Positions 1,806 to 40,001 of a stretch of DNA of 64,000 nucleotides are shown in pieces. The DNA is from Mactra antiquata (Eukaryota), in assembly GCA_047288015.1 (NCBI GenBank), contig CM103819.1:32753354-32817353 (forward strand), written 5' to 3'. The position numbers and the translations under genes were made by a program. The notes under the pieces are model-generated. The model searched no databases and had not been told where the DNA came from. It saw nothing but the letters and a program-made list of their open reading frames with translations. The stretch's first letter is position 1, and each line of letters begins with the position of its first letter.

Positions 1806-2083
1806 TCATTCTCCTTTCATGAATTTTGCCATCTTTGCCATTTCTGTCCCATAGGTTTTCGCGCTGTCACCAAAAACAAAACTTTGGCTTGCACTAGTTG
1901 AATATTTCGAAGCTGGTGGATTTTTATCAAAGACTTCTGCCACTTCTCTGGTAAGACTTGGAGAGTTACCACAACATAGACCAACATATTGTATACCCAA
2001 TTGTTTTGCATCCTCTGCAAACTTTCTGATATCTATACGAGTACAACGAACACAGTCAAGATTGTCAGGGTACACCAACTTTC
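1806..2083 (-). CDS. BHMT: BHMT-like paralog A, terminal exon including TGA stop (acceptor attccag|GAAAG)
   Basis: Translates to (G)KLVYPDNLDCVRCTRIDIRKFAEDAKQLGIQYVGLCCGNSPSLTREVAEVFDKNPPASKYSTSASQSFVFGDSAKTYGTEMAKMAKFMKGE*. The GLCCG motif corresponds to the BHMT GGCCGFEP zinc-ligand Cys pair. The stop codon is at 1806-1808. Confidence 0.78.
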
Positions 2084-2586
2084 CTGGAATATAAACCATG
2101 TGATACACGAGGGCTGTCCCAGTAAATCGTGCACTTCGTTCATTACTTTCTTTCCATACCTAACAGTCTTGTCTTTCGGCACCAAACGAATTAAATCAAT
2201 TTAGAACATTCTAATTCAGAGACAGAGAAACACTCTATATCTATATAATATCTATATTAATTGATTAGACATTCCTTTAGGCTGACACAAACAAGATCTT
2301 GCAATTGGCTCTTATATCGAGCTGATGCATGATAAATGTATATAAAATTGTTTAAATTCATTACATCCTCCATAAAGAATAATTTAATCTAGGCGTAAAC
2401 AAGCGATGCAATAAAGACTAATTCATGCATAAAACGAAGTTGTCAAGAGGGAACACTATCTCGCGAGGCATAGGCCACGCTTAGGAGATTCGCAACACTT
2501 GCTCGAGGGAGCCGTAAAAATGGCGTTCTTGACAATCAAATTGAAAGTCACGTGATGTCCAATCAAGTTATATAGGTCAATGTTAC

Positions 2587-2668
2587 CTGTTTTTGGATCC
2601 TTTAGTGAGAAGAATGTTCTTTCTTTATCATTGGTTCTGTAGGGCACAGGAAGAGCAGCAATAGGTCC
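2587..2668 (-). CDS. BHMT: BHMT-like paralog A, exon 6 (acceptor ttttacag|GGACCT, donor ACAG|gtaaca)
   Basis: Translates to GPIAALPVPYRTNDKERTFFSLKDPKT. Length 82 nt in all three copies. Confidence 0.75.
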
Positions 2669-3439
2669 CTGTAAAATTAATGAACTTGAATTTCATCATT
2701 CATGAAATTATTGGAAAAGAACACTTAAGTATTATTGTTTTCGTTCCTATTTAAGTAAGTTAATTTACATAACAGTATTTCAAATTATACTATGTTCACT
2801 GTTGTCAAATTTTGAATTACAAGTATGTCGCGTGGTCGACGGTGTTAACGTTAATTGAAGTTGCTCTTCTTCTTTGTTGGTCTCTATATATGTCAGATCA
2901 GTTTATTATTTTGTTTTTTAACAATTTGATTTTAAACAATCTAGGTATGGCAACTGACTTGTTTACTAAAATTCACAGCGACAGTGATGTAGGATATATA
3001 ATGATATACTCCTCTTAGAACGACTGGATTTTGTTAAACAAAACAAATCAAAATGGCGACTGACAATACCTTTCGACTGACTCACAGGAGCTGACTGGTC
3101 AACCAAGACTGACAACCGCCTTCATATACATAGAAACATAACAAAGCTTTCACAACAAGAGTTTTGGACAATTGAGTAGATATGTTCTTTTGTTGACTTT
3201 CATTGTCGGATATCCCAGCACACCAACTACGACTGACTTTATAAAAGTATATGAAGAGAAACGTAACAAAGCAGCATGGTTACCATTAATGGTTTATTTG
3301 TTTTCACTCGTTTTCATGTTTAATGCCACTTTTAACACATTTCAGTTATATAATGGCTGTTGGCTGACCTAACCAGTTACACACTTAAGACGAGAAAGGC
3401 TATATGAAGTTTTAGTAAGTGTTTTGCGATTTGCATTAC

Positions 3440-3618
3440 TTTGCACACTTTCTTGATTTCTTTGAGAAGAGGCATCATGACGTCAGGACCACGTGAACAG
3501 TTTATACCAACCACAGCCGCCCCCTCATCTTCCAGACGCTTGCAAGCTTCAGGTATAGGTACATCGTCTGTTGTACAATCAGGAAAATGAGCAGCAATCG
3601 TAATAACTGCAGGCACAC
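3440..3618 (-). CDS. BHMT: BHMT-like paralog A, exon 5 (acceptor tttag|GTGTGCC, donor AAA|gtaatg)
   Basis: Translates to (G)VPAVITIAAHFPDCTTDDVPIPEACKRLEDEGAAVVGINCSRGPDVMMPLLKEIKKVCK. It contains the GINC motif corresponding to the BHMT GVNCHFDP zinc-ligand cysteine. Length 179 nt in all three copies. Confidence 0.78.
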
Positions 3619-4101
3619 CTAAAGGATGTAAATTTCAATAATTGTATTCATGCGTGAAGGTTTAAGAATGTGTCGAAATATGACATTTGTTAGAGGTGTC
3701 GCATTCATAAAGAATATATTGCAAATGTCTCGCAACGGCGGTCCCATTAGCCAGGCATCATGAAAACATGATAAAAACCAAGGTCCAGACTTCTGCATTT
3801 GGAAGTTTTAGTAAATAAAATAAATAAACTTACATGTCGTAATTGAATAATTTTGATAAGTACAATGTATGTACTTGTATTTCACCGTGTATTTCCGTTA
3901 ACAATATAGTTATCAAAAGTATCAAATAGAATGGCTACCAAAATTTGATATCTCTTCATGGCACACCATTAAAACGCACCTGAATAAGAATACTCCGATT
4001 TATGTAGAATGACAACGATTTATGTAGAATGACAAAAATACTCATTCTACGCTTTTAATGTTATTGCAATTATTATTTGATAACACGTATGTTATTTATA
4101 C

Positions 4102-4213
4102 CTTTTCCGAAATCCTTAATAGTTTGTAAAGCAATTCTGGCCTCGCCATATGAGCCAAATGTTTCACCTATAATATAGTCAGCTCCGGCATCAACCGCCC
4201 ATTCCACTTGTTC
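4102..4213 (-). CDS. BHMT: BHMT-like paralog A, exon 4 (acceptor ttttag|GAACAAG, donor AAAAG|gtataa)
   Basis: Translates to EQVEWAVDAGADYIIGETFGSYGEARIALQTIKDFGK, matching the BHMT motif [29 protein letters not shown]. Length 112 nt; too short for the ORF track but in phase with flanking exons. Confidence 0.72.
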
Positions 4214-4835
4214 CTAAAACAAAAATATAAGTACAGTCTGATTTGTCTCTTTATGTAGAAATTCTCATCCAAAGATAATAATTTCAGTATTGTCCCAATG
4301 TTTAGGGTGATACGAAAATTCTGTACTTGAATCAAGTGTGCTGAACAAGTGCAGAATTGGCAATAAGTAGAAAACGTATGCAACTAAAGTTGGTAGGCTT
4401 TTCATAATTACCAAGCAATTGATATAAGATTATCGTTCACACTTGTCACTGCAATAAGTCATTATAGTCATAGCTTAACTTCATTAGTCAATAATATTTA
4501 AAGTATTGCAAGGTTATTGATAAAATAGAAAAAAAAAATGTAAACGTTTAAACGGATTATTATTTTGTGTTTAATGTCGTAATTGAACCACAGCCATCCG
4601 ACATGCAAGGAACTTTTACATATAAGAAATCACCACCTCTTCACAGTCAAACAAGCCTGTAAAATGCTATATTCATACAAGAACCCTATATAAACCTATA
4701 GGGTACATGATTCATATAATTATAATGTATGTTTGTCATCTGTATTATTATGCATACAATGTCCTCATGCATTTCGACAAATTGAAAGGATATAAACAAT
4801 TTATCTAACAGACATAGAAACAGTAATATTCTCAC

Positions 4836-5030
4836 CTTAAACATGTCATAGATTTTCTGTTGTGCTTCAGGATCATTTTCCTTATACAATGGTGTATTAC
4901 TAAGTCCACCAGCCATCAATTTATCATATTTATCAGCAACACGACGAGCTATAGCTAATGCATCACGGTTAAGTTTCTCTACTTCGTCTTCTCGACCTCG
5001 TAGTTTCATCATTTCACGATAGGCATAATA
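4836..5030 (-). CDS. BHMT: BHMT-like paralog A, exon 3 (acceptor tttcag|TATTATGCC, donor AAG|gtgaga)
   Basis: Translates to YYAYREMMKLRGREDEVEKLNRDALAIARRVADKYDKLMAGGLSNTPLYKENDPEAQQKIYDMFK. Length 195 nt, phase 0 to 0, identical in length to B and C exon 3. Confidence 0.78.
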
Positions 5031-5049
5031 CTGAAATATTGCATTCCAA

Positions 5050-5345
5050 AAACTAGTTCACATTGACAAGGATTACAATTTCAATATCATTTATAGCGTG
5101 CTCACATTGACCTGAGACAAGGAATACAATTTCAATATCTTCTATAGCTTGTTCCTACTTACAATGGACATAGTTTAGTTTCACAAACATTTTAAGCTTG
5201 TTCACATTAACCTGAGGAAAGGAATACGAATTCAATATCATTTATAGCTTGTTCCCATTGACCTGAGACAAGGAATACAATTTCAATTATCATTTATAGT
5301 TTGTTCACATTGACCTGAGACAAGGGAAACAATTTCAATATTATT
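5050..5345. repeat. Tandem array (about 5 units of about 60 bp) of a GTTCACATTGACCTGAGACAAGGAATACAATTTCAATATCATTTATAGCTT element, in intron 2 of BHMT copy A
   Basis: The unit repeats directly five times with point differences. Dispersed single copies of the GTTCA(C/T)ATTGACC(T/C)GAGACA core lie at 17290-17320 (copy B intron) and 32940-32965. Inverted or partial copies lie at 5395-5420 and 33100-33180. Confidence 0.7.
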
Positions 5346-5475
5346 TCCAAGCGTTTTAATCAGTATTCTACAGTGTTACTGAAGCTTGTACTATTCTAAT
5401 GTCTCAGGCAAATGTGAATAAGCTTTAACTAATATTCTGTATAATATCCTTTAACTTTTATTCTGTTATTATTTT

Positions 5476-5607
5476 GTACTTTAAATGCCAGGGTAAGGCG
5501 TATGACATATCTGTCTTATACAAAACGTAAATAATACTGTCGTCCTTAAATGCCATAGTAAGGCGTATGACATCTGTCTTATACAAAACGTAAATAATAC
5601 TGTCGTC
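5476..5607. repeat. Tandem duplication of a 57-bp unit
   Basis: AAATGCCAGGGTAAGGCGTATGACATATCTGTCTTATACAAAACGTAAATAATACTGTCGTCC is repeated twice. This produces the repetitive ORF 5458-5652. Confidence 0.7.
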
Positions 5608-5895
5608 CACGACTATTGTCAACCTTACCTTTGTCGGAATCATGACCAACATCAGTATCTAGTACACATCTTAATGAATTAACCTCGTTTGAGTTTTGAC
5701 AACGAGACTGTGATTACCTGTATTATATTTATTGGTCAGACAGATCTAATGTAGTACTTAATTTGACATTTTCAATTCTTGACCATTCTCTAAATGTCAA
5801 AATCTTTATCAATGATAATAACACGCGAGTGCACTGATTAGCTTATAACTTAAATTTTAACCATTTAATATACATGTAGTTTCCAAGCAACTTAC

Positions 5896-6086
5896 CGTAT
5901 ATGCCTCAATGACGTCACTTCCTGCTAGAGCAAATTCTTCATGAAGCATTTCGACAGCTTCAGGTTTCTCTAGAACAACTTCCGGTAGGAAATTACCAAA
6001 CTGAAGTAGACCTCGTCTTTCTAGTTCCCATAAGTAACCCTCAGCTACAACCACCGTTTCTCCATCCTGTAACCTTTCTCTGAGAC
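5896..6086 (-). CDS. BHMT: BHMT-like paralog A, coding exon 2 (first recognisable exon; phase-1 acceptor caag|GT, donor ACG|gtaagt)
   Basis: Translates to GLRERLQDGETVVVAEGYLWELERRGLLQFGNFLPEVVLEKPEAVEMLHEEFALAGSDVIEAYT, which aligns to the BHMT N-terminal region (ILERLNAGE..GDGGFVFALEKRGY..EAVRQLHREF..AGSNVMQTFTF). Length 191 nt, the same as the homologous exon in copies B and C. Confidence 0.75.
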
Positions 6087-6289
6087 CTTGATTAAAAAGA
6101 AAATATTAGTTTCTTAAAAGGAATACTGCATGCGTTTAAAGACGAAATATATTTGTGACGTCATGTAGATGTTAATCATTGTAGATTGCCCTAAGATGAT
6201 AAATTGTCCCAGTTAAAACACTAAGAAACATATAAAATTCTGTTTATAATTATGAGCCTCCAGTTTACCATAACTTGTACATTTTTGCT

Positions 6290-6775
6290 GGTTTAAGAGT
6301 TTATGCCCATATGATGTGGGCAATTCACCTTACCACCGCTCCTGGAATTCACCAGTACTAGACTAACATCCTTTACAACTTTCTCACAAAAAAATGTGGT
6401 CCGAGCTGGACTTGAACCAAACACACCAGTACTAGACTACACTCCTCCACAAACAACTGTCTACTTTCTCACATAAAGATTGTGTTCCGAGCTGGACTTA
6501 AACCAGACACACCAATACTAGACTACACTCCTCCACAAACAACTGTCTACTTTCTCACATAAAAGATTGTTGTCCGAGCTAGACTTAAACCAGACACACC
6601 AGTACTAGACTACACTCCTCCACAAACAAATGCTTGCTTTCACTCATAAAGATTGTGGTCAGAGATTGACTCGAACCCACCCCAGTCTATCTGCTACAGA
6701 TTACAGTAATTTGAAGACGATGACTTTAGAAATTCGACCACGGAAGTGGATCAATTTTAAATTATCTGCAATGTA
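6290..6775 (-). mobile_element. SINE family C (minus orientation) carrying an internal tandem array of about 85-bp units
   Basis: The right end ..GTGGTCAGAGATTGACTCGAACCCACC..AATTCGACCACGGAAGTGGATC is the reverse complement of a tRNA-like head with a GGTTCGAGTC B box. Positions 6372-6700 hold about 3.9 copies of an 85-bp unit TTTCTCACATAAAGATTGTGTTCCGAGCTGGACTTAAACCAGACACACCAATACTAGACTACACTCCTCCACAAACAACTGTCTAC. Homologous copies lie at 40125-40395 and 41425-41580. Confidence 0.6.
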
Positions 6776-8087
6776 AACACAATAAAATTTAAAATGTTTA
6801 TCGTACGGAAGCGCTGTGTTAAAATGTATCAACCCTGTTTTAGGAAAGCCATGTTCTTGTTTCTGATTTCGACACCCTGTCTTATTGCCACAGTCCAGAA
6901 ACAGCTGTAGAGGAACAAAACACGTACTTTTTCATACTTTTAGTATGAAATGAACGACTCCATTGGTGGTCAGATTGTCCGTTCCTGTTCAAATTTTTGG
7001 ACAAAGGGCTTGAAATGATAAATAAAATTTGCATTACATTGCAGTTTTAACCGACATTTGTAAGTCTTTGTGTGGACTTTCTAGTATTTGTAACCGATAT
7101 GTTTGGTGTTCGAGTCCATCTTGATCAAAATGCTGAACTGCTAGTCACACATTGAAGAAAATTGTGATTAGTTCCCTCATACAAATTACACACGCTTGGT
7201 TTTGTTAGAGACACCTACACGGTTTATAAAAGAAGACCCGTACGGTAGTACATTAAGTAGATCTGTTTTTTAAACAGGATTTGCCTCTATACCACAATCG
7301 GAACGTCTGCGCATTTTTTGTAGCAAGCCAAATGGAACGATGCGTTTAGATTGTCAAAAGTCGGTCTCAAATCAAAGAAGAATAACTCTTGCTAACTTGT
7401 ATATGTATTAGAGTGACTCGATAACGTCCCCTGATCAAACCGTCCTACTATATATATCCTCATTATTGAACCTATCGCGGATTATCATGATGCAACTTGG
7501 TAATGTATTCAGAGCGACAGGAATTTGCATGATGAATTAAGTTATTGGAAACCAAGTCCAATTCATATGTGAATCTAGTTCTTTTCTGGGAAGACCGTCG
7601 ACTAAATTACAGTAGGAATCCTATTGTTTGCACGTATTTTGCGAATCCCAGGGGTCCGGACCCTCGACCCCCGCTGGATCGACTGTTTCAACTTGCATAA
7701 CTCTCCGATGTTGTATCATGTATATATTTGTTGCCATGGTTTTATCGGAAAATGTAGAAATCATTTCATGTGCGTGTGCTTGGTGACAGCTTAGATATGA
7801 AAAGCTTGAAGAAGTTTCTTTCTTTCTGTGCATGAGTAATATATTCATTTTTTGGTCATATTTTCGGCCTTGTCTCTGCTACGACTATTTATAAGAGCAT
7901 TTCTAGAGACATGGTCAATTTTTATAAGATCTGATTACTTACAGCCTACTTCTCATAAACTATGCTGGTGAGTTTACTCGGATATTTATTTACCCGAGAA
8001 CGCAGTTGTGTGAAACTAACACTTGTATGACAGATCGTTATAAATACATCGTGTGCCAATATCGAAACTCGAATAAGTAACTCATCA

Positions 8088-8366
8088 CCGGGTCCATGGC
8101 GCAGTAGGCTGTGCACAGGATTTCGAATCTAATGTCCTGAAGGGGTCGCTGGAGCATCACCCGGGCTGGTTACATGTATACCCTTCCATGAAAATTCGAC
8201 TATAATGTCGATTTTCCTCCATTAATAAGGTATATTGAAACGTTGTCAGTCTTGTGGAAGGGTAGGCGAGTACTGGTTATGAACAAGGGTCCGAAAAAAA
8301 CTAGGTCAGGTGCCTAGCTGGCCGCCGAAATAATGACCGTAATTTGTATTGACACGGCGTTAACCC
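8088..8366 (+). mobile_element. tRNA-derived SINE, family A (ACCCTTCCATG core), full-length copy
   Basis: tRNA-like head (TGGCGCAGTAGG A-box-like). Body ..CATACCCTTCCATGAAAATTCGA..TTTTCCTCC..GTACTGGTTA..GGGTCC..GCTGGCCGCCG... Tail GACACGGCGTTAACCC. A near-identical inverted copy lies at 52682-52972. Confidence 0.7.
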
Positions 8367-10077
8367 AATCCCTTAAAAAGTAACTCATCGATTGCAAAGC
8401 ATGTACTTGTTGTCCCAGATATACGGGCTATCACTGGTTTGTAATAAAATTGTCGCAACCAGTTTAAGCCGGATAATTTTGAGTCAATTTTATATAGATA
8501 TACGAAGTAAAACTTGGTCAAATGAGATAAGAGCGAACTATAGGTCGAAATCTGGCTCACGTATCACGTTTCATTCATGCACCCTTACTGTTTATATTTG
8601 ACTTGTAATGATAACGAGAGGTTGTTTATAAACATTTAAAGCATAGATCAATAATATCATTGACACTGGCGGACTTCAGAGAGGTTAGGGGACACGAGTT
8701 CAGTTCTCGCCAGAAGTTTCAGCATTTTTGAATAAGTCGCTGTAATGGTTTTTAAAAATCCTGGACCTCCGAGAGATAAATAGAAAGCCTCTCAAACTAA
8801 ATGGTTTCAAGGGCAAATATACGAAAATATCCGACTGAAAAGTCTCCGGAAATACCCGACTGAACACATCCTTGAAATTTCCAATGTCTATATTTAGTCA
8901 TTCTTGAATATCAGAGGCTTACCTTTGTAGTATGAGAGTAAATTTAGCGGACACTTTATTTTCGAACATTTCCGACCAAAATACCCAGATGTATACGTAA
9001 ATGCTGTAATAAGTATTTCAGAACGTTATCCGTAATGTGGGAAAATTTGAAAGCGTAAATGAAGACAATGTGCTTTGGGGTGTGAAAGTGTCCATTGTCT
9101 GTAGCGGTTCTATGTTAAATAGGTGACAAAAAACATTACGGACAATCTGGAACAATGTATACTTCTGGAAATACTATACATGACTGTTCGAGTAATCTCG
9201 TTCGATGCGATGAATTGGCTTTAGTTGGATGTCTAGTGTTTGAAGCAAGTTGCCATGGTGAGGATATCCGCTATAAAATTTCATAAATGTCATCCGCTTT
9301 TAAAAATCATATCCCATAATATTGCCGTTTTTGAAAAGGCTTTCATTATATAAACACAATATAAAGAAAATGGGAGAAGATCACTTAGACTACTGGCACT
9401 TAATTTCATGATTTTGATTCACCGATTTTTTATTACATTATACATTAAATTTCACACAAATTCGTGCACTTCTAATTTGTCCGCAACGGAAGAACGAATA
9501 AAATCCCGTACATTTCCGGGCCAATTTCTATCCAGAGTCGTCGTTCCTACGATCATAATTATATACATGCATTACATTGTAATTACAAGATCTCACATAG
9601 TCGGAACCGAGTGTTTATAAGCCAGTAAGCATATTTACAATGCAATTGATCGCAGCCAGAAAAATAAAGTATCTCACCTCGCATGTTTGTTTCCAGTAAA
9701 TCTCAATTGTGGTACACTGTGACTGTGATCAATACTTAAAAACTTTCTAATTTTATGTAAACCTCTTTTACTGAATGAAACGAGCACTAACAAATGCTCA
9801 CTGCAAATGTTTTATATAATACGTAAATATGCAACTAATGTGCAAAAATATGCTATACTGACGAGTTTATCAAGTGAATGCTATTATCTTGAGAGTGGCC
9901 GGTCATCTATTCCTTTGTACATGTATATTTCTATGCTCTATATTCTGACCATTCCTTGTTTAATAAGGACCATATCATGCCAATTTTAACACACCCAGCA
10001 AATAGATAAAGTATCCAAAGGAATAAGGCCATGACTACTAGGAGTAATTTTAAAATTTCAACAGCTATTAAGTTTCA

Positions 10078-10140
10078 CGGTTAACAGCTAAATCCAGTCG
10101 TGGTGTGACCTATACAATGTGTTGCTACGGCGTTAAACCC
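10078..10140 (+). mobile_element. 5'-truncated SINE family B tail fragment
   Basis: AACAGCTAAATCCAG..GACCTATACAATGTGTTGCTACGGCGTTAAACCC matches the 3' end of the 23322-23640 copy. Confidence 0.6.
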
Positions 10141-10495
10141 AACCGAAAAAATCACGCCATTAAAGATGTCCAGAATGAGAGAGAGAAATCGTTGGCAATT
10201 CAGAGGATTCCAGATATTCTCCGGTTTCGGATTTCTTAGGTTACAATGTATAGCTCATGTACAAGAGTTGCCTGCTATTTTTGGAAGGTATGTAAACTTT
10301 TACTAGGCTGGAGTCCTTGAAATCTGGCAAATAAATTGAGTATCGAACTTTTGAATAAGTAATAAATTTCAACCAATAAATGTTGCATGGGTTTAGTTAT
10401 ACAAAAATGGCAATGTCTGTAAAGTCAGGCAAAACTTCATTTGGTTCTTTAAGAATACTGAAATAATGCTGAAAGCATCATAACGAAACATTAAC

Positions 10496-10815
10496 TCTGG
10501 CCTTGGCGCAGTGGTAGAGCGAATGATTACGAAGCCGGAGGTACTAAGTTCGATCCCTGGTCGCAGCAGGTCTTACCCTTCCAGTAAATTCGAAGTTTAA
10601 TATCGGTTTTCCTCTGTAGATGTAGAAGATGTCGACTTCTAGTGAAAGGGTACATGTAAGCAGTACTGGTTAACGAAAAGGGTCCAGGAAATGCTATAGT
10701 TTAATGTGCTGGCCGCCGTAGATTAAAATGGTTCGGGAAATGCTATAGCTAGGTGAGCTGGCCGCCGTACAAAACCTTATTACGTGTTGATAAACGGCGT
10801 AGGTTGAAAAAGCAA
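10496..10815 (+). mobile_element. tRNA-derived SINE, family A, with internal duplication of the GGAAATGCTATAG..GGCCGCCG segment
   Basis: Head GGCCTTGGCGCAGTGGTAGAGCG..GGTACTAAGTTCGATCCCTGG carries clear A and B boxes. The body is homologous to 8088-8366. The tail ..AAACGGCGTAGGTTGAAAAAGCAAAAAC is A-rich. Confidence 0.7.
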
Positions 10816-11989
10816 AAACAAAACAGTAAATCTAAACTTCAACAATGTACCGTCACAAAGTATGGCTTTATTATTTCATTCGGCTATCTCTGTGTAGACT
10901 CATTCGGTGAAATATGTCCTATTTTGATACTGAAGCTCAGATGCGACTTAATTAATCAACGACAGAGTTTGGACAGTGGACAAAGTTGAAGTGGGTCAAG
11001 TTTAGTGTTGTAAACAGATCATATTACAATTAATTACCTAGTTGTCAGGGTTATTATATAGGTGTACAGATATTCAACATTGATTATGACCAAGGACAAA
11101 TCCTCGGAGTCAACATTTATTGTAGTCAACAACTTGTAAAAAAGCCACCAATTTTTGATAGCATTTATTGCAGATCAAGCGGTAGACGAGAGTCAGGGGA
11201 TCTCCTACCCCCTGAATTAATGTTAAAACATCTTTCATTGAGCTTGTTGTAATGTTTAGATTGAAACCGTTGACATCGTCGGATACCCCAGATACGTTGA
11301 TACGCTATACCGACGACGACCCTTAGGCAGCGTCTTAACATGGAACTCTTACTCGCATGTAGAGTGGTTGATAATGCTATATTGTGTCTATACAGATATA
11401 GAACCACAGTTGTGGCTATTGCAAATATCTAAAATAACATCTCTTGAAGACGTCTTTGAAATTGTACTATGAATAGTGCTGGTGCTGTTCTTTAATTCGT
11501 GTCCATGTTTTCAAATATTCTATCGGTAAAGTGCGCACTTGAATGCACGTGTTCTTGTATATGTAACTGAGATATGACCATATCTGCTTCTGTTGCCTTA
11601 TTTGAATGTAACCTTCGTTATTTAAGTCAAGTGTCACAAACGTACGGCGGAATGTACTATTCATGACGCACTTTTTATTCTATTATCTTGTAGCATTGAC
11701 CTACTGGCACATTTCTGGATGCATTTCCAAAAATAAACCAAACTTTTGGTCGTACTGCATGATGTTTATCTTCGTGTCCTTGTACTAGGCATTGTTTGTT
11801 TAACATTTAATCATTGCCAAACATAAAATATGGCAATCCATTTTGCCTTTTTTGGTATCCAATACAGTATAACCTCCTTTCACAGCCATCTCTTAGTTAC
11901 CACTACATCACAACAACGACTACCTAAAATCACTAATTGTCCTGATGTTCCGATAGCAATAGCCCTCCCTACAACAATCACCTCTTTAA

Positions 11990-12170
11990 GACAGCCAGTC
12001 ACCTCTATAACAGCCAGTCACCTCAATAACAGCCAGTCACTTCTCTATAATACCCAATAACCTCTTTTTAGACCGTCAGGCATATCTCTTTAACAGACGG
12101 TCATTAATATATAACAGCCAGTCATTTCCCTATCAGTCACCTCTTTATAACAGCCACTGAAGTATAGTTC
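11990..12170. repeat. Tandem 19-20-bp repeats of ACAGCCAGTCACCTCT(A)TAA
   Basis: CAGCCAGTCACCTCTATAACAGCCAGTCACCTCAATAACAGCCAGTCACTTCTCTATAA..., with more units to 12170. Related dispersed elements ending in a short hairpin lie at 33590-33660, 44330-44475, 51340-51440 and 51700-51800. Confidence 0.6.
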
Positions 12171-12365
12171 TGCTACTGCCTGCTGTAGTTAGATTTCACT
12201 GCACACTCATGTAAGCGTTTATCTTACGCCAGATAAATGAAGGCAGGTTGAATCGTATTCTTTGTGTGGATATTTGTATGCTGGATGCCTGGCTAGATAG
12301 CTGGTTGGATTGATGGTCGGGTGGTTGGAGTACAAACTGATGGCCACTTATTACGTTAATTCAAA

Positions 12366-23640: not shown

Positions 23641-23793
23641 ACAATTGTCGAAAATCCTCGTCCGGCCTGTTGCAATTCATTGGAGTGAATAAAATGAAAC
23701 ATGGCGACTAGATCTGGTACATGATGGATAATGACGTATAGTGATCGAATATTTTGCTAAACCCAAAAGAGCTATTTAATTCTTTCGACTTAC

Positions 23794-27205: not shown

Positions 27206-30200
27206 TAACTGTAGTTAAAATCGTCTTCAGTTGTAGTTATGGATAGTTGTATATAATCCGTGTGTCTCTATTGAGTAGGCATGTCAATCGTGAATAGGTC
27301 GTAATATGTGTTCATTGAGTCTGTCCATTAAATTAGAATTGGTACATTGAGTTGAACTTGAGAAGACTACTAAATGGAAATTTCTCTAATAACTCATCTT
27401 TATATAGTTTCTTTGAAACCACAGTATTGTTACAAGTTTTAAAATCACGTATAACATTTAATGTCATTTAAGTTTGATGTTCAAGTGGTACCATGTGTGT
27501 TTGCCGGTTGTTCCGTAGATAGAAACATTTCTCAACCGAATATCTACTGCGCAGCAACATACAGATACATTTTAACATCGTATGGGGTCAATCTTTTAGA
27601 TAGTGGTTATTTTTATACTGTAGTGTCTCTTAAAACAGGGGCACCATTAGGGTCAAAACTTTGAATGTTAAATGGGGGTGTCCGGCTTAAAAAAACTGTC
27701 GTTTTTCATACAATGTTATGAACGTCTGTACACTTGATCCTTGTAGGATCTCTCCATGTATATATACATGTATATTTACTAATATTTGATTAGTACATTA
27801 CAAATAGGGGTTATATTCTAATTTGGCTCATTAAGGAATGCTACATGTATACTTTAAAACAATAATACTAGACCTACCAGTTTTACAATTGATATGTTCA
27901 TTTTCATTTGGTTGCCATGGCAACCAATGTCAACCAGCGTACTTAGTTATGAAAAATAATCTGAGAGTGAAACACCTTTGTAACATTTTTATGTTAAAAT
28001 TGTTGCGATAGTTTACATGTATTAAGAAACCGATTAAGTTACTCAATTTTCATGCAAAAAGGGAGTTAATAGCCACCAACCTTTATAACTAACGAGCGTG
28101 TCCTGATATATCAAAATATTTTTAAACTTTAAATTTCTACCTTCCAAAGTAATTATATACCTCTATCTCCAACCAAACGCAAGCCAGAAAACGATTATGC
28201 ATTAAGTACGTATTATCAAATCTGTTAGTATGAAAGTAGCATTCAAGGGCCGGGATTCAAACCCACAATGCTATGTGCATGCATTGTTATTTCCTTATTT
28301 TCATAAAAAACAGTGTTTTGAAAGGTATAGTACTCGAAATTATTTAATTAGTGACTATAAGTATTTAGATCAACATTAGCATATTTTACATGACATTTTT
28401 AAGTTTAAAGTGTCAGCGGGATATTTTACCCCACCAACTTAACAAGTATTGTATATGAAAACTGGTGTAAACTTTCTGTACGAATTTTATATCAACATAA
28501 AGATAACTACCAGGGTATGTTTTATGTGAAGTGTAAATGATCAGAAATAAGAAGCAAAAAGAAATTGGATGGTTTACTTCGATAGTTCGCCCCTTCCTAT
28601 ACTAAACATCTGGGCTACTTTTGTCTTCTTATTACCAATTATTAGCCTGAGAGCTTGTTACTGCTCATAAAATGACATTAAATGAAAGAACTATCTCCCA
28701 GCTTTATTTTGATACCATATTGAATGTTTTAGACAAATAATTAATAAAGATATGGTGAGTTATAGCAAACATGTATCCGAACTGCACTCATTTGACCTTT
28801 GACCTAATTTGTGACCTACATTGGGACTTTCACGCTTGGCATCCAGCCAAACTATATGCAGACCCTATTGACAAATACAGATATCATACTCTAACATTCC
28901 TACTCTTTCATGCCATGGACCATGAAAAACAAGCCACTTTTTCGTAATTGGATTCCCGACTATAATGTCCAACAATCATACATATATTGCATAAAAGCCA
29001 TTACGTTGACCACCAGATCTCCACCTAACGGCCGCCTTTGTGTATACATGGGACTGTTTCATGTTTGTAGACAATATTGTATTAATGAAGCATATACTTA
29101 TGTAGATTTTAAGAATTTAAGGGCTCTGGTGCCAGTACTCCCGATAGTTGATTAGGCCGAAGGCATTGATATCATCTGTTGAACCAAATGCTAATGTCGA
29201 ACGTCGAACTGGTTCGATGTTCGATATTGAATATCAAATATCGAACGTCGAATGTTGTGCCAAGTTATTGGACCTGACCTCTCAGCTCAGATACATTGAG
29301 GACACTCGGTATTAATATAAAAAAATGTAGCATATTATATTATATTTGCATATATATCGTGTGTAATAAAGATGATGCAAGACATTCAATCATGCATGAA
29401 GGCAAACATTCTACATTATTTTCGATGTTTTCATGCCCATTAGATGTTGTTTTTTTTGCATTCCTAGGAGTACAACTGAATACGTGCGTACTAAGAATGT
29501 GTTAACCTTTATCATCTACAGTAATACACTCAGGGTTTGTTTACTGAGTGTATGCGAAACTGGTAATTCTTTGAATGTCATTCAATAATTGTTTAAACAC
29601 GAATACAAAAATAAACAATGCATGTTGGCTTTTGATTTCATAAAAATAATCCTTATCACAATACAGCCCCATGATATAGTGGAGTCGCTTGGTATCTTAG
29701 AATGCCACGAAGTATTCGAAGTGCGTGGCGGATTAAGGAAGCAAAGTGTTCAGGCAGGCTCAGCGCCTTATATCTTAGATTTTTCAAAATGTTTGAAGTT
29801 TTATACTTAATAACATAGCATTCAACAACTGATTGCTATTTCCATTAATTCTGTATTATTTGTGCTGTCCATCCAACTAAGGCGTAATTAAAACTAATTA
29901 ATTTATTCTCCAAAGAAATTGCATTTTCTCGAGGAGGGGGCGATTTTGAACTTGCCATGCACCTTAAGACTTATTTAATGCGAGTGTCTGTAACAGAGAA
30001 ATATTTTCAATCTAGAGGCCAAAAGCTTAAAAAGCTAAGTGCAAAAAGTTCTACTGCAAATTATTTGCAAAATCAGCAATGTTCTGTATAATCGTTCGGA
30101 TAAAAGCTTAACCGTTGCAAATGATGATGCAATTGTGCCACGCATCTGTAGCGTGCTATTACAATATACATGTACTATGAACGATAAATTGGTTAAGATA

Positions 30201-32443
30201 ACGCACCGCTAATATACATTCAACTTCTTAATCGCAATGTACGTATGAACAAGTGTATTTTACCATTATAATAGAAAACTGCAAACAATACTAACTCTGC
30301 ATAATTTATTATAAATTATTTATATCATTTCCATAATAAAAAAACAAGTCCTAAACGCTAATCATTCTTATTTTCCGTTATTTGAAATGAACCTATAAAT
30401 GCAAGAACCAAAGTTGGCCGGCACGGTCCCTTACGGCATACATGTCACTTTCATAGGTTTCAAAATTTTTATTCTTTAAAACATAATTCAAAACCTTAAA
30501 ATAGTCAAATACAAACTTTGCATTTTGAGAAGTCTTAAAGATGCTCATTCACAAATTTCAACTTAAATATCAACTTTCTAAAAATCTCAAATTTGTTTAA
30601 AACCATTTTGAAAGCTGTATTATAGTGTTTTGCTAATGACAATTTTAGTCCAAATTAACATACAACTGTGAACGATGGTGATTTAATGTAAAAAACCTTC
30701 CCCGTTAGTAACGGTATAGATGATTTAGTGTGTTTTTTTTATTTTTTATTTTCTAATTTTATATTTCTCACAACCTATAGGTCAGTTTGCCATAAAATAT
30801 TAAGAATTCATTTTCTAAACACAATAACAGACACTAACAGGTAATTTTAAAATATCAAAAGAAAATAACCAAATCTGTGAACGAGTAACTTTAAATAATT
30901 CAGATATTTAAAAATCCAATTCGTGTATATAAAATACATGTAAATACTAAATTACTAAATTTCTGCAAATAAATGAAAACAAACATCAACAAACCTTTTG
31001 CAGGCATTCTGTCTGTTCTTTTATATCCGTCAAATAAAGAAAAAATAATAAACGTCTTGCGCCGAAATTGAGCAGTGAAATAACTTCAATGTGAGCTTCA
31101 ACCCGAAAATTGCTCTTTTATATGACTGCAGAAAAGTCAAACCGACATACATGTATATACGAAATTTGTAAGTCGTAGAAAGTAGGTAAGTCTGTAGATT
31201 AGATAAGTTAATGGTCGTTTGCAAAAACCTATCTGGTTTAAGCCAGTTTCACAATCCTTGCGAGAGAGTAACTAGAAATAATACTGCGGGGGAGTGTTAA
31301 AAATGAGGACACATAATCCGTATACAAAGTTCGCGATATACACCAAATCATAAGTGATGTATGGCGGTGGACATTACTTAAAGGTTGCTTAGATTGTTAA
31401 CTTAGCTAAGTACGTTTCACCCGAGTAAATTGATTTTTTCAAGTTCGTAGCGTTAGTTAAAGGGGAGAGTCAATGCAAAAACAACTTGGTCTTAAATGTT
31501 TCGGAGACAAACTCAAATGTGAAAGAATTTTTAAAATCGACTGCCTATTAAAGATATTCATAATTAAAGATGCAAAATATTTGTGCATGAATATTAATTA
31601 GTTTGACGTGTCCATTTTTTATTTGAGTTCTATTATGTCTAATTTTCTTGGACTATAGTGGCATTAAAATCAAAAAGTTACTGTGTATTGAACTTTAAAA
31701 AATACATATTCAATTTGCAATTTATATTTTTTATAACAGAGAAATTAGCAATGCGCATATTAATTAACTTCTTATGATGTCATTCTGATGTCATGCGAAG
31801 TATGAAAAATATACATCTAAATGCTCATAATTTCGTTAATAATCATGCAAATTAAAAAAGTCTGTCACTTCTGTGTTTCTTTTTTGATACACTATTATTT
31901 AAGCTACAGTTGTTTTTGTGACTGAATCTGCCTTTTAACATTTGTTACCTTTGTGATGATGCAAAAGTGAAAAATAACTGAGCATTTCAACGTTCAAGAC
32001 ATTCGGAAATAAAAAAAGTCAAAATATATTTCTATGTCAGTGTGACCATACTGTTTTTAACATATCATCGATGGGTAGATTATATGTACAAAGTACTTGC
32101 ATCAGAAACGTACTTATAATTGTAATTTTTGATAGATTTTGGTTTAAATTTAAAATGAGTGCTTAATATTTGAACATTTTGTTTCTATTGTGGGATTTTA
32201 ACACAATGCATGAAAAATATCTTCATTGAATAAACACATCCTACCTTCAAAGTACATATAATAAGCGCCGTAATCTTTATGACTTTATTACATCATATTA
32301 CATGCATACATTTACTTCTGTATTGCTATGGTGTCCAATGCCATCTTCAAAACTTTTTTCTGTCATATCTTATCAAACTTTTCGTACTAATGTTGTTGTT
32401 CTATACTCTAACCAGTTCTTACATACTGTTTCACCTACTCTGT

Positions 32444-34254: not shown

Positions 34255-34510
34255 ACACTGGAACCTCAGAGGTTCGATCTCTTGGCGGGGCATACTTTCG
34301 TGGAGCTTGGTCATGAAATAAATTCTACGGCCATTCTCCCTCCTACAACTGATTCTAAATCATGTAGGGCAGTTGTCAGTCACTGACGAAAGTATGCGCC
34401 TAGTAACTGGTTAACAGCTAGATCCAGAGATTTAGCAATTCCAGGAACGGTGAGTAGGTTGACTGACCGCCGTGATATGACCTATACAATGTGTTGCTAC
34501 GGCGTTAAAC
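34255..34510 (+). mobile_element. SINE family B, 5'-truncated head, intact body and tail
   Basis: ..GGTTCGATCTCTTGGCGGGGCATACTTTCGTGGAGCTTGGTCATG...GACTGACCGCCGTGATATGACCTATACAATGTGTTGCTACGGCGTTAAACCC. More than 90% identical to the 23322 copy over the body. Confidence 0.75.
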
Positions 34511-35324
34511 CCAACCAAAGCAAAGGAACCTCGGTATACTACCATCCCCGATTAAAGACCACTTCGCTAAGACATGCAATTATTTGTTTTATATTCAATT
34601 ATCTTTTACCTCGATAATGAGTAAAAGGATGCCGTAAAACTTTAGTGTTACCAATTGCAGTGTATAGACCTACAGCATGCAGATATGACATTCAGTTGAT
34701 ATCCTCAAATACCAGCAATCTTCATTCAGGTGTCCAATACTTATATCTCTGCCATTTAATGGACACGATTGTAACATACCTTTAGACTGAAGGCGGTTTG
34801 AATTATGTGCAGCTGACTGGGCGTGCGGATGGGCGTCCCTTAGTTAAAAAAGTTTCTTCCGATCTTCACCCAATCTTGTTAGAATGTTTGTCACAAGAAA
34901 TACTCGACTATCAGGCCAACTAGCCTGGGATTATAGAGTAATGGACCCTGAATAAGTGTGTGACGGACGTCTTTTGTGACATTTTGTTTTAAAATGAAGT
35001 ACAAGTGTTGTACTATTATATATACATATAGACTTTAACCCCTGAAACAATTTGCTATATAAGCTACCTCTATCTCTTCTCTCTCGGTGTTAACAATAAA
35101 TAAATAACAATTACGTAATGCTAACAAAGGTTATCATTGAGGTTGTTGATTTACAATTACTCTAAATGACTTGTTTTGTAAAGTATGACATAACGTTGAA
35201 CAGTCAATTTAATATATGAATTTATTTTGACCTTGTGAACGTAGTCATTCACATAACCAATTCGCCTAGGTCAGATGACGAATATACATTGCTGATACAT
35301 GGTTAGTTTTGTAGAAACTTATAG

Positions 35325-36002: not shown

Positions 36003-36334
36003 TCACTTACTTTCTTTATCGGCACCCTCGTACAAAGCATTTAGTTCTTCTTTGCTAAATAATCCTAAAGAATATTTCTTAACTAATGCTCCTTCCTTGC
36101 TGATGTTTTCAGCGGCTTCTCCAATCATTATATTCTGAGTCATATCTGGTGCATACCTCATTGCTTTTGGATTTTTGCCGTATACATCTGCTAGTTCACG
36201 TGTGAGATTTGCAGCATTGCCACAACATAGCCCAATGTATTGAACGCCGATAGCTTTGGCTTCTTCAGCAAATGCTCTGACATCCTTTCTGTTACATATA
36301 AACGTATTTATATTCTCTGGGTACATGAGCTGAC
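36003..36334 (-). CDS. BHMT: BHMT-like paralog C, terminal exon including TGA stop (acceptor tttcaaacag|GTCAGC)
   Basis: Translates to (G)QLMYPENINTFICNRKDVRAFAEEAKAIGVQYIGLCCGNAANLTRELADVYGKNPKAMRYAPDMTQNIMIGEAAENISKEGALVKKYSLGLFSKEELNALYEGADKESK*. Length 332 nt. Confidence 0.78.
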
Positions 36335-36675
36335 CTGTTTGAAATGGAAAAAATCTGGACATTAGTGCATTCTACATTCAAAAATATGACCGAAGACAGT
36401 GTCCTCCATTCTGAGGAAAATTATGATTATCTTTAAGAAGTAGGTAATAGTTGTTGTAAAACTAAATAATAAATGGCAATAGAAACAGTTTACTAACGCT
36501 ATAACAGCGCATCATCACAAAAAGGTCATGTCGCGCCGATAAATGGATTTGAGTGAACTGCATCTGACGAATGAATAGTTAACGCATAAAAGTAATTTTT
36601 GTTAAGACGGCATATAATCCAATCAATCAAGCATGAACGTATTGTAATTAACTGTAATCAATAATTAAATGTTAC

Positions 36676-36757
36676 CAGTTTGGGGATCTTTTAGTGAGTA
36701 CATTGTCCTGCATTCATCAGTGGTTGTCATGGGTACAGGTAATGCTGCAATTGGTCC
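36676..36757 (-). CDS. BHMT: BHMT-like paralog C, exon 6 (acceptor aattttag|GGACCAATTG, donor ACTG|gtaaca)
   Basis: Translates to GPIAALPVPMTTTDECRTMYSLKDPQT. Length 82 nt. Confidence 0.75.
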
Positions 36758-37285
36758 CTAAAATTAGACACAACGAAGTTATAAAAATATTAAATCTTGA
36801 TCGTGATCGACAACTAGTGCTCAGACAGAGCAGCTCTGTTTCAGCATTTAAATAATAATAACCCTGTAGAACGAGCTACTTCAATATCATGTCGAACTAG
36901 CAAATATGTTACCATTCTCACTAGTCAGAGGCTAGAAGGTAAACGATTCTAGATCGATTATGTTTTGATAATCTCTAGGTTCCGAGAATGATAGATTACA
37001 AGCTGTTTATGACAAAAAAAACGTCCAAGTTCAAATACTAGATTTAACAATTTCTACAACGCATGCATTTCCCTATTATAACATACTGAATGTATACACG
37101 TTCAAAAGAAACACAAATAAATTCTATAAATTTCACTGCGCATTTAATTTCCATAGAATTATGTATTTACAATGAAGTGTTTATATCTATCAAATTCATA
37201 GAAACTTGTTATTTGATCCTCAACCTAAGTTTTCGCTTTAAGAATGGAACGGTCAATGTGACACAAAAACGCAATGCAAACATAC

Positions 37286-37464
37286 CTTACAAACTTTCCT
37301 GATTTCTTTAAGTAATGGTAACATTGTGCTTGGACCTCTGGTGCAATTTAAACCAACAACAGCGGCACCAGCAAGTTCTAACTTCCGGCAGGCTTCAGGA
37401 AATCTTACTTTATCTAATGTTACGTCAGGATGAAATGCTGTTAATGTAACCACGGCTGGAATAC
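37286..37464 (-). CDS. BHMT: BHMT-like paralog C, exon 5 (acceptor tttaacag|GTATTCC, donor AAG|gtatgt)
   Basis: Translates to (G)IPAVVTLTAFHPDVTLDKVRFPEACRKLELAGAAVVGLNCTRGPSTMLPLLKEIRKVCK. Length 179 nt. Confidence 0.78.
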
Positions 37465-38030
37465 CTGTTAAAGGAATTGAAACATTGGCATTGCAATACA
37501 GGAACAACTTTCCTCTGAAATGGTTTATATTGCAATAACACATATGAATATAAAAAGTAAAATTAACCATGGACCATACCTTAACATGTACTGTACTTGT
37601 ACATAATTATACTATGTCTTAGCAGCGTATTTAAAAGCGAAAAATCATTCAAACATAAACAAGCTCAAGCATTGGGCACATTTTATAGCTATTTTAAATA
37701 AGGTTCATTGGCCAAAACATATGTCTTCAATTGTGAGGCATTATTACGTCATAAAGCAAACAAACAGTACATCGATGATCATTATCAAAATGGGGAATAA
37801 AACAATTCAGGATCTGCGATCTGAGAATGATTTAGTTAGTTGACCAGGAAACAAGCAGACTACCATATGTTTGTATATTGCCTAAATATCATAGTGATCA
37901 ATCTGTAAGAATTGTCGCATGGCTCTGTCGAACGTACGGTAATATAACCAAAGTAAAGATTGAATCTTCAAAAGTTTGTGGCAAGTACAGTGAATGCACA
38001 AAAATCATTTAATTCAACATATACTCTTAC

Positions 38031-38142
38031 CTTTTCCATATTCCTTAATAACTTCTAAGGCAAGTAAGGCTTCTCCGAGATATCCGAATGTTTCAGCTAT
38101 AATATAATCACAACCACCTTCTACTGCCCATTGCACTTGTTC
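38031..38142 (-). CDS. BHMT: BHMT-like paralog C, exon 4 (acceptor aataatag|GAACAAG, donor AAAAG|gtaagag)
   Basis: Translates to [37 protein letters not shown]. Length 112 nt. Confidence 0.72.
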
Positions 38143-38299
38143 CTATTATTAGTGACAGAAATGTCAAGAGCATATTTCATTTATCATAAAAACAAATTGG
38201 TACTAAATTAATTATTTTTGTTTATGACTTAGCAGAAGTATTGCTGCGTGAAGTTATTTTCAAGCAACTTGGTGATGACTTCAGGTCTGAACTCAACCA

Positions 38300-38580
38300 A
38301 AGGATGTCCGCCCGGTTGCTCCGTCGACAGCACACCTGCCTATCGATCCAGGGAACTCGGATTCGATAGTTTGATCGTAATATAGCTTCTAAGACTATTC
38401 TCTCTTCTACCTTTATGTCCAGTAGTGCAGTAGTCAGCCACTATTAAAGGTGTAAGTGTTGTACTGGTTAAAAACTTGGGTCTAGACATCTTCAGGGACA
38501 ATAAGTACGCCGACTGACCGCCGCGATGTCTGTAAAAATTTCGAAAAGCGGTGTAAAACACCATAAATTACCAACTTACC
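38300..38580 (+). mobile_element. SINE, family B-related with divergent head, in BHMT copy C intron between exons 3 and 4
   Basis: Body ..GTCCAGTAGTGCAGTAGTCAGCCACTATTAAAGG..GTACTGGTTAAAAACTTGGGTCTAGACATCTTCAGGGACAATAAGTACGCCGACTGACCGCCGCGATGTCTGTAAAAATTTCGAAAAGCGGTGTAAAACACCATAAATTACC. The tail matches the 54030 copy. Confidence 0.6.
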
Positions 38581-38853
38581 AACCCAACGATACTCACCAA
38601 AAAAATCTTTAATGTCAAATGTAAGGAATGTTAAGTCGGTTTGCTGCTTGCACAGTATAACAGATAATTTGAGAGTTCCTACTTTCCAACCAAAAGCAAA
38701 GAAATGGTTTGGTGTATCATGCCATTATGTTTAGATCAACGACATGAGTCTTTAGGAACTAGTATGTTGAATACATATTGCAATGAAGCAACGTAACGTT
38801 CATGTGTTTTGAAATTGAAATTTTGAAAACAAGCAAACTAATTATAGTCTTAC

Positions 38854-39048
38854 AATAAACATTTTTCTGGTTGTGTCATGTGTTTCTTTATGATCTGCGC
38901 TATATACACCAGTCACACAAATATCCCCTGCCATTAATGTACCAGTTTTGTCTGCTACTTCTCTTGCTATTTTAATGGCTGTTTTATTGAGAGTCTCTAG
39001 ATCACCTTCACGACCTATTGAACGCAGCTTTTCTCTGTGGGCATAATA
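38854..39048 (-). CDS. BHMT: BHMT-like paralog C, exon 3 (acceptor ttttttacag|TATTATGCC, donor ATT|gtaaga)
   Basis: Translates to YYAHREKLRSIGREGDLETLNKTAIKIAREVADKTGTLMAGDICVTGVYSADHKETHDTTRKMFI. Length 195 nt. Confidence 0.75.
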
Positions 39049-39810
39049 CTGTAAAAAAGAAATAGATTGAATCCAATCTACAAAAGCCAGTAGAAGTACT
39101 AATGCTTTGCTGAACTGTTATAAAGTGGTGTCAAAAGTATTCATATTCATTTTAAAACATGTCAAATGATGACTTTGATTGGACTCTAGTTATGTTTGGG
39201 AGGTGACTGTTATTGAACGGTGCCTGTTATTATGAGGGTTTTTTGGGAGGTAGCCTTTATGGGAAGTTTCTGTGTATTATGAGTAATATGGTTTATGACA
39301 TATTGGTACAAGTTGGAAAGCTAAGCAAGCAATGTAATCGTTACATTTCAATTACCAATGTCATCGTTCACATTTGCTAGTATACTTAATTTTGAAAGTG
39401 CGGATTGCTGGAGAAAATAAGGAGGAGAAAGTTATGGGTGTTGACATAATTTAATGATGTACAACCGGAGTACAAAAGGTCTAGAGTTCAGATATCGGGC
39501 CCAGCTTTTATGGTGTTTCCGGAATGTTTCTATGGTTTCTCCATTCGATCCACAGATGCCACTTTTGTTATTAGTTAACATGAAAGATAGAGAAAACATC
39601 AATGGAGCTCAGGGACAGTTAATATGTATAAAACAACTGTTAAAGGATAAATAATGGCTCATATCTTATCATCTTCTCTTTGTTGCCCATAAAACTGATC
39701 TGCCTCTTTATAACCCACCTTGTTGGCATAATGAGCATCTGTATACGTATTTAGTACATGTATAATTATGTATTATGGTTTTGCCAACCTGGTTCTTTTT
39801 CAATACTTAC

Positions 39811-40001
39811 TGTGAAAGCCTCCACCACGTCACTTCCGGCATGAACAAATTCTTCATGCATCACACGTATTAGATCTGGATGTTCAATGACCACTTCCGG
39901 TACAAAACCACCACCTTTCAGGTAACCACGTCTTTCAAATTCTAACAAATAACCTTCTGCAACCACCAGAGTTCCTCCGTCCTTTAGACGTTCTACAAGG
40001 C
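39811..40001 (-). CDS. BHMT: BHMT-like paralog C, coding exon 2 (acceptor cattccag|GC, donor ACA|gtaagt)
   Basis: Translates to (G)[63 protein letters not shown]. Length 191 nt. The acceptor position is conserved with copies A and B. Confidence 0.75.

Follow-up and report, generated by a model that had tools for sequence, protein, structure and literature searches.

Three tandem BHMT-like genes of Mactra antiquata: an anciently duplicated trio from a putative thiol methyltransferase subfamily

A 64-kb stretch of the genome of the clam Mactra antiquata (contig CM103819.1; this whole stretch is referred to below as the window) contains three genes, designated A, B, and C, which follow one another head to tail on the minus strand, in the order C, B, A in the direction of transcription. 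The explanation that we prefer, at a probability of roughly 0.8, is that all three are functional, anciently duplicated genes for zinc-dependent thiol methyltransferases, with a betaine most probably as the methyl donor. Judged by sequence, they belong to what we call the "AEGY-type" subfamily (a working name), a sister branch of canonical betaine-homocysteine methyltransferase (BHMT) and not its ortholog.

Gene models, fold, and zinc site

Two tblastn searches of the window were run, the first querying with a BHMT sequence and the second with copy A. Exactly three collinear minus-strand exon sets, of six exons each, were found in the whole 64 kb, and at E≤10 neither a fourth copy nor pseudogene fragments were detected in the window. 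Exon boundaries were placed by eye on three-frame translations and verified by assembling the exons. The six homologous exons measure 191, 195, 112, 179, 82, and 278 nt in A, the last of these being 323 nt in B and 332 nt in C; the third is 106 nt in B, a two-codon deletion relative to A and C. Introns are GT...AG throughout, with phases of 1,0,0,1,0,1 in each gene, and the three reading frames contain zero stops and zero frameshifts.

Since the six-exon models start at a phase-1 acceptor, each gene must possess a further 5′ coding exon. These tiny exons were located from the GenBank N-termini MRG- (A), MPAKG- (B), and MSSKG- (C), each of which gave a single exact match before a GT: ATGCGAG followed by GTGAGA at 9684-9678 in gene A, ATGCCTGCAAAAG followed by GT at 31007-30995 in gene B, and ATGTCAAGCAAAG followed by GT at 43676-43664 in gene C, with the ATG at 9684, 31007, and 43676, respectively. 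Gene A (1806-9684, minus strand; GenBank ACF0H5_008165) thereby encodes 347 amino acid residues in seven coding exons, namely 9684-9678, 6086-5896, 5030-4836, 4213-4102, 3618-3440, 2668-2587, and 2083-1806, the stop included. Gene B (13770-31007, minus strand; ACF0H5_008166) encodes 362 residues, also in seven coding exons (31007-30995, 23984-23794, 17822-17628, 17232-17127, 16467-16289, 15382-15301, and 14092-13770), as does gene C (36003-43676, minus strand; ACF0H5_008167) with 367 residues (43676-43664, 40001-39811, 39048-38854, 38142-38031, 37464-37286, 36757-36676, and 36334-36003).

The completed models equal the GenBank proteins P0121 (A), P0008 (B), and P0001 (C) residue for residue; copy C matches the entry "hypothetical protein ACF0H5_008167 [Mactra antiquata]" at 100% identity, and this entry is placed on a 47.8-Mb chromosome. 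A fourth Mactra paralog, P0127, is found on another chromosome, which brings the genome to at least one further copy. The chromosome-level assembly of Coelomactra/Mactra antiquata was published in 2025, and BHMT and betaine are unmentioned there (PMC11897284).

All three translations match Pfam PF02574 at several times the cut-off of 22 bits: A at 133.5 bits (E=1.8e-38), B at 128.0 bits (E=8.4e-37), and C at 132.6 bits (E=3.4e-38). The alignments begin at profile position 25, and the region of the N-terminal DGG motif is outside the match. Protein identity among the paralogs is 56-65%, which together with Pfam E-values of about 1e-38 excludes chance. By sequence, the PDB entries closest to the three proteins are those of rat and human BHMT (E 8e-45 to 2e-42); the homocysteine domains of MetH match much more weakly (E 3e-17 and worse). 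C was modeled with AlphaFold2 from an alignment of 80 sequences, and the model has alternating strands and helices, with a predicted local distance difference test score (pLDDT) of 95.6 and a predicted template modeling score (pTM) of 0.92. Foldseek ranked human BHMT first for this model (1lt8/4m3p; TM 0.76-0.80 at 28% identity), followed by the MetH homocysteine domain and Escherichia coli MmuM. A, B, and C can accordingly be placed in PF02574, and C is modeled as a (β/α)8 barrel.

The predicted first zinc ligand, equivalent to C217 of BHMT, is the cysteine of a GINC motif in gene A (3497-3508) and of GLNC motifs in genes B (16346-16357) and C (37343-37354). The second and third, equivalent to C299 and C300, lie in the GLCCG motifs at 1968-1982 (A), 13977-13991 (B), and 36219-36233 (C), all on the minus strand. 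These cysteine columns are invariant across the canonical and AEGY-type sequences, and in the alignment with canonical BHMT the equivalents of E159, Y77, and G28, the roles of which in BHMT have been described (PMC9713302), are invariant as well.

Much of this had been proposed in the first-pass annotation of the same DNA. Its three intact tandem minus-strand paralogs with a homocysteine S-methyltransferase domain are confirmed as six-exon sets with open frames, and so are the exon lengths that it listed (191/195/112, 106 in B/179/82/278-332), the identical intron positions and phases, the retention of the three zinc cysteines in every copy, and membership of PF02574 (128.0-133.5 bits). Its array ended correctly at 1806, whereas the upper end was set at 40001, the tiny first exons having been overlooked; with these added, the array runs from 1806 to 43676.

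Subfamily membership and age of the array

The AEGY-type sequences aligned with A, B, and C included Mactra P0127, hemichordate P0114, and bacterial members such as P0163 (Latescibacterota). They are typified by the motifs (A/G)EGY(L/F)xE(L/F)ERRGY, FTYYAHREK, ETF..GEA, NCxRGP, ALPVPYRT, and GLCCG, by a length of about 350 residues, and by the lack of a dimerization arm; A, B, and C exhibit all of these and cluster with the mollusc, hemichordate, and bacterial members. The signature motif, AEGY at 6034-6045 in gene A and 39949-39960 in gene C and GEGY instead of AEGY at 23932-23943 in gene B (all minus strand), replaces the canonical GDGG(F), so that D26 becomes A and G27 becomes E in gene A. 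It is conserved in 80 mollusc and hemichordate homologs and in the bacterial members.

Canonical BHMTs, by comparison, run to approximately 395-407 residues; those of human, amphioxus, the hemichordate Glandiceps, Lingula, and the ctenophore Mnemiopsis have pairwise identities of 56-71%. Their motifs are AEY(F/Y)EHVEEA, VNCHFDP, QGFIDLPEFPF, GGCCGFEPYHIRA, and the arm HTKPWVRARA...GRP. A, B, and C are only 31-35% identical to them (32-35% to human BHMT), whereas identity to bacterial P0163 amounts to 45-47% and to the AEGY-type proteins of bacteria and eukaryotes at large to 41-56% over the full length, with motifs, length, and absence of the arm in common. In a neighbor-joining tree the split between canonical and AEGY-type sequences received 100/100 bootstrap support, and the animal AEGY-type proteins were monophyletic in 80/100 replicates. 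The bacterial genes of this type are single and intronless and often adjoin flavin adenine dinucleotide (FAD) oxidoreductases or ATP-binding cassette (ABC) importers; the animal ones are multi-copy in molluscs.

Vertebrate BHMT (PDB 1LT8, 1UMY, 4M3P, and 8D45) is nonetheless the best match in both sequence and fold, sharing the zinc ligands, E159, Y77, and G28. In the Mactra genes, as in BHMT, the first coding exon is very short, and the intron behind it ends immediately ahead of the "G-(I/L)-x-E-R-L" sequence that opens the barrel; human BHMT has 8 exons (PMC4516251). The differences lie elsewhere. Loop L2 is 5 residues shorter than in canonical BHMT, the dimerization arm is absent (a 36-column gap opposite human residues ~331-366), and the canonical C-terminal tetramerization helix is not conserved in these proteins of 347-367 residues. 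In BHMT the tetramer is built by the arm together with the C-terminal helix, residues ~319-406 (PMC4516251, PMC3871600). The term "BHMT-like" thus appears to hold for fold and chemistry, and orthology to BHMT does not. Where the first-pass annotation spoke of betaine/homocysteine methyltransferases, the kinship with vertebrate BHMT as nearest solved structure stands; the genes, with a changed pocket and no arm, are not orthologs of BHMT or BHMT2.

Some mollusc members are named "BHMT2-like" by NCBI on the basis of similarity only. Mammalian BHMT2, an S-methylmethionine-homocysteine methyltransferase, is likewise shorter and has no C-terminal oligomerization segment. Unlike A, B, and C, it retains the GDG, W44, and EY160 motifs of canonical BHMT. 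As BHMT2 (363 residues) arose as a duplicate within mammals (PMC4516251), the name carries no orthology, and an identity of A, B, and C with BHMT2 was rejected, the mollusc genes branching outside all canonical BHMTs.

The age of the trio was addressed with a bootstrapped tree (100 replicates) in which human BHMT served as the root for 70 homologs from molluscs and hemichordates. A clusters with Ruditapes P0122 and Mercenaria P0136 (100/100), B with Ruditapes P0010 (98/100) and further with Dreissena and Mya proteins (96/100), and C with Mercenaria P0003 and Mya P0006 (99/100); in 0/100 replicates did Mactra A, B, and C form a group of their own. On this tree the three genes appear to have one-to-one orthologs among Ruditapes, Mercenaria, Mya, and Dreissena. 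Exon-by-exon tblastn revealed three PF02574 genes on one strand of Ruditapes contig JAKTTH010005100.1, the orthologs of C, B, and A in that order, an arrangement equal to that of Mactra in both order and orientation. In Mercenaria a PF02574 gene of 373 residues lies 6 kb downstream of the C-ortholog, and the A-, B-, and C-like proteins of Mya are all assigned to one 83.6-Mb chromosome.

Pairwise comparison of the Mactra copies gave proportions of synonymous differences (pS) of 0.66-0.76, which is saturated, against 0.22-0.30 for nonsynonymous differences (pN); pN well below pS indicates purifying selection on the trio. At the nucleotide level the genes share one repeat only, the 191-nt exon (65-76% identity), and recent gene conversion between copies was rejected on the ground that the repeat is confined to that exon at that identity. 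Taken together, the orthology clades, the Ruditapes array, and the saturated pS argue that the trio is ancient and not a lineage-specific expansion, contrary to the first-pass annotation. It predates the divergence of mactrids, venerids, and myids/dreissenids, its order and orientation having been kept under purifying selection. That divergence is of Palaeozoic scale.

The same evidence bears on the alternative that a true BHMT was recently triplicated within Mactra, driven by betaine accumulation in an osmoconformer. The copies are indeed adjacent, on the same strand, and built to one exon plan, and bivalves do accumulate betaine (PMC11849188). Such an event is nevertheless very improbable given paralogs with saturated synonymous sites and so limited an identity, orthology clades at 96-100, the lack of any replicate uniting A, B, and C, an identical C-B-A array in Ruditapes, and the position of the genes beyond a split from canonical BHMT supported at 100%. 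The osmoconformer rationale for the array as such is plausible. Every mollusc sampled possesses many paralogs of the AEGY-type subfamily, often several per chromosome; Pecten maximus has five such proteins on one 51.4-Mb chromosome and Mercenaria has at least eight. Nothing specific on an expansion of BHMT in bivalves or molluscs was found in the literature.

Support for expression is by proxy, from contigs of the orthologs. An intronless contig of 1355 nt assembled from public sequencing runs (L083) contains the complete B-ortholog and is an exact translation match to P0010. Intronless contigs of 1288 and 1876 nt encode P0002, which is 81% identical to C, and P0063, which is 80% identical to A. 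The lack of introns in these contigs suggests that the orthologs are transcribed and spliced collinearly with the Mactra models.

It could be argued that at least one copy is a non-functional or non-catalytic relic, or that the triplet is an assembly artefact of collapsed or duplicated haplotigs, and introns 1 and 2 of gene B are unusually long and repeat-bearing. This we regard as scarcely credible, considering the intact frames, canonical splice sites, and retained catalytic residues, a pN much lower than pS, a conserved ortholog for each copy with transcript-like intronless contigs among them, and protein identities of 56-65%, which are too divergent for haplotigs.

The A-orthologs P0063, P0122, and P0043 carry N-terminal extensions of 20-40 residues (...RRFSTSPTTRQ-G) resembling a mitochondrial presequence, whereas Mactra A starts with MRG. 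A longer first exon encoding such a presequence found no credible match upstream of 6086 (window positions 6087-13769); either the extension is absent from Mactra A or the search overlooked another first exon that encodes it.

Catalysis and the methyl donor

Each gene would encode a cytosolic zinc-dependent thiol methyltransferase of ~350-365 residues, folded as a (β/α)8 barrel. Its three cysteines (GxNC plus GLCCG) would hold Zn2+, which would bind and activate the thiol of homocysteine, and methionine would then form by transfer of a methyl group to homocysteine from an onium compound, with glycine betaine or a similar betaine as the likeliest donor. The zinc triad and E159, together with Y77, the fold, and the nearest relatives of known structure, favor zinc-activated thiol methylation with homocysteine as acceptor. 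Catalytic activity, the acceptor, a betaine-type donor, and any division of labor among the copies are deduced. Betaine use by A, B, and C is likewise a deduction and not a reading of the sequence, and was overstated in the first-pass annotation. That glycine betaine is the main donor has, in our estimation, slightly better than an even chance.

Some indication of the donor might be expected from bacterial relatives. A scan of one genome per species revealed AEGY-type genes in at least 592 bacterial species, the carriers including Latescibacterota, Gaiellales, Solirubrobacterales, Alpha- and Betaproteobacteria, Myxococcota, and Chloroflexota, and neighboring open reading frames (ORFs) within 5 kb were clustered at the best 80 loci. 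A sarcosine-oxidase-like (DAO-type) FAD oxidoreductase, PF01266, adjoins 17 of these loci. ABC ATPases adjoin 22, with ProW-like permeases alongside only about 8-10, and a glycine-betaine-type binding protein (OpuAC; E 1.6e-70) occurs at 6. The "ProV" neighbor cluster was considered as a uniform importer signal and was downgraded, the 22/80 being mixed ABC ATPases of which 8-10 have ProW/OpuAC partners. Other recurrent neighbors are IclR regulators, a second PF02574 protein fused to an S-adenosylmethionine (SAM) methyltransferase, and histidine-ammonia-lyase-like, MmgE/PrpD, thiamine pyrophosphate (TPP), CN-hydrolase, and dimethylformamidase-like proteins. In a subset of the bacteria such neighborhoods would fit the breakdown of quaternary amines, but the pattern is heterogeneous.

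The Latescibacterota loci L001-L007 share a conserved block made up of a PF02574-SAM-methyltransferase fusion (~597 residues), two short-chain dehydrogenases/reductases, a dimethylformamidase-beta-like protein (PF20254), the AEGY gene, a TPP enzyme, a DAO oxidoreductase, and a RidA-like protein, with formate dehydrogenase genes upstream. It looks like an uncharacterized pathway for methylated compounds.

Several findings weigh against our reading of A, B, and C as zinc-dependent methyltransferases with a betaine-type donor. Ten substrate-site residues have been defined in BHMT (D26, G27, G28, W44, F76, Y77, E159, Y160, F261, and F267; PMC9713302), and six of these are changed here: D26 to A/G, G27 to E, W44 to F, F76 to Y, Y160 to T, and F267 to Y. 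G28, Y77, E159, and F261 (M in C) are kept. Mutation of D26 cripples rat BHMT and Y160 is the resting-state zinc ligand, and both differ in the Mactra proteins. No NCBIfam equivalog is matched above its curated cut-off by A, B, or C. Bacterial Bmt (NF005718/PRK07534), the homocysteine methyltransferase (HMT) MmuM (NF007020), and the YitJ-type HMT-MTHFR fusion (NF006396) have the Pfam domain and the zinc-thiol chemistry in common with them; the scores are far below the cut-offs, at 63-81 of 338 bits, 57-69 of 215, and 141-145 of 453, respectively. A literature search found no assayed enzyme of the AEGY-type subfamily. The bacterial neighborhood signal is a minority pattern: of the 80 loci, ~8-10 have ProV/ProW/OpuAC genes nearby and 17 have the DAO-type oxidoreductase. 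Finally, the absence of canonical BHMT from molluscs is read from a list of its top 120 relatives and not from a genome search.

The altered pocket is also the principal argument for other or diversified onium donors, such as S-methylmethionine, dimethylsulfoniopropionate (DMSP), proline betaine, homarine, or trigonelline, with homocysteine or another thiol as acceptor and with the paralogs specialized by donor. We consider this possible, if on the unlikely side. The donor-side changes at W44, Y160, and D26/G27 (to A/E), the position of the subfamily apart from every curated equivalog, and the heterogeneous bacterial neighborhoods, with their histidine-ammonia-lyase-like and dimethylformamidase-like proteins, TPP enzymes, and CN-hydrolases, all speak for it. 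The very long retention of three paralogs and the many paralogs in other molluscs would fit sub- or neofunctionalization, and some mollusc members bear the label "BHMT2-like," if by similarity only; BHMT2 is restricted to mammals (PMC4516251). Conversely, the pocket residues examined are almost identical in A, B, and C, the differences between the copies being found mainly in loops and C-terminal tails, so their donors may not differ, and where the bacterial genes do adjoin a transporter, it is one of glycine betaine/choline type that comes with its OpuAC binding protein.

The list of 120 relatives of canonical BHMT includes a brachiopod, a nemertean, cnidarians, arthropods, echinoderms, and hemichordates, and within it identity of the canonical protein stays at ~60% across ctenophore, fish, placozoan, tick, and brachiopod. 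Many mollusc genomes have been annotated, yet none contributes to these 120 entries, and the canonical gene may have been lost from molluscs. The oyster "BHMT" of expression and single-nucleotide polymorphism (SNP) studies is of the AEGY type, to judge by its quantitative PCR (qPCR) primer, which encodes VLAFTY (PMC11849188). Two hints favor the AEGY-type protein as the BHMT-equivalent enzyme of molluscs, namely this primer and the lack of any mollusc among the listed relatives, the latter being suggestive only. A more speculative proposition, which we hold to be rather doubtful, is that molluscs have lost canonical BHMT and rely on repeatedly duplicated AEGY-type enzymes with a remodeled donor pocket, those of the C-B-A array having distinct onium donor preferences (glycine betaine as against sulfonium compounds or other marine betaines).

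Other features of the window and wider meaning

The window is AT-rich (GC 30-39%) and has no long ORFs; its short, exon-like open frames are bordered by GT/AG, as expected of animal DNA. A dispersed repeat of ~240-300 nt is present in three plus-strand copies, antisense to the genes, at 23375-23616 (intron 2 of gene B), 34271-34512 (between B and C), and 43395-43636 (~30 nt downstream of exon 1 of gene C). A tRNA-like 5′ end (GCTCAGTCGGTAGCGCAC...GGGTTCGATCCC) and, in one copy, a terminal poly-A run mark it as a tRNA-derived short interspersed element (SINE). Two pairs of inverted repeats with adjacent arms, 30534-30894 (170 nt at 93% complementarity) and 48989-49340 (164 nt at 88%), lie 18 kb apart, and the one in gene B is found ~100 nt downstream of that gene's first exon. 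A transposable element present twice, in opposite orientations, is the probable source of both.

Introns 1 and 2 of gene B measure 7010 and 5971 nt, as compared with 3.6 and 0.8-0.9 kb in A and C. They hold the SINE and an ORF of 162 residues without a Pfam match (20720-21208), and were probably inflated by repeats. The introns of gene A contain three minisatellites: a 51-nt unit repeated 5.5 times at 5065-5346, directly upstream of the 195-nt exon; a 63-nt unit repeated twice at 5481-5608; and, in intron 1, an 86-nt unit repeated 3.4 times at 6378-6671. Two plus-strand open frames of 141 and 110 codons (61208-61630 and 62567-62896), the second rich in acidic residues and in Ser/Lys, have no Pfam match and could be exons of a neighboring gene. 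Ten other long open frames in the window match no Pfam family, save for a sub-threshold Serinc match, and neither tRNA genes nor Rfam matches were found in the window.

A tandem family of this kind is ordinary in a bivalve: the genes are already hypothetical proteins in GenBank, and their orthologs have been auto-annotated as "BHMT1-like" in many molluscs. The significance lies in the annotation. Although its mollusc members routinely go by the name BHMT, the biochemistry of this widespread subfamily seems never to have been characterized, and the "BHMT" of the shellfish literature, with its expression and SNP studies and its links to betaine content and salinity, appears to be a different subfamily with a non-vertebrate pocket. 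Should the donor specificity differ from that of BHMT, or between the paralogs, current views of how molluscs catabolize betaine, turn over osmolytes, and supply methyl groups would have to be revised, as would those for the many bacteria with AEGY-type genes. If molluscs do rely on duplicated AEGY-type enzymes of distinct donor preference, the osmolyte pools of marine invertebrates would feed into the regeneration of methionine by a link that the vertebrate enzyme does not lead one to expect.

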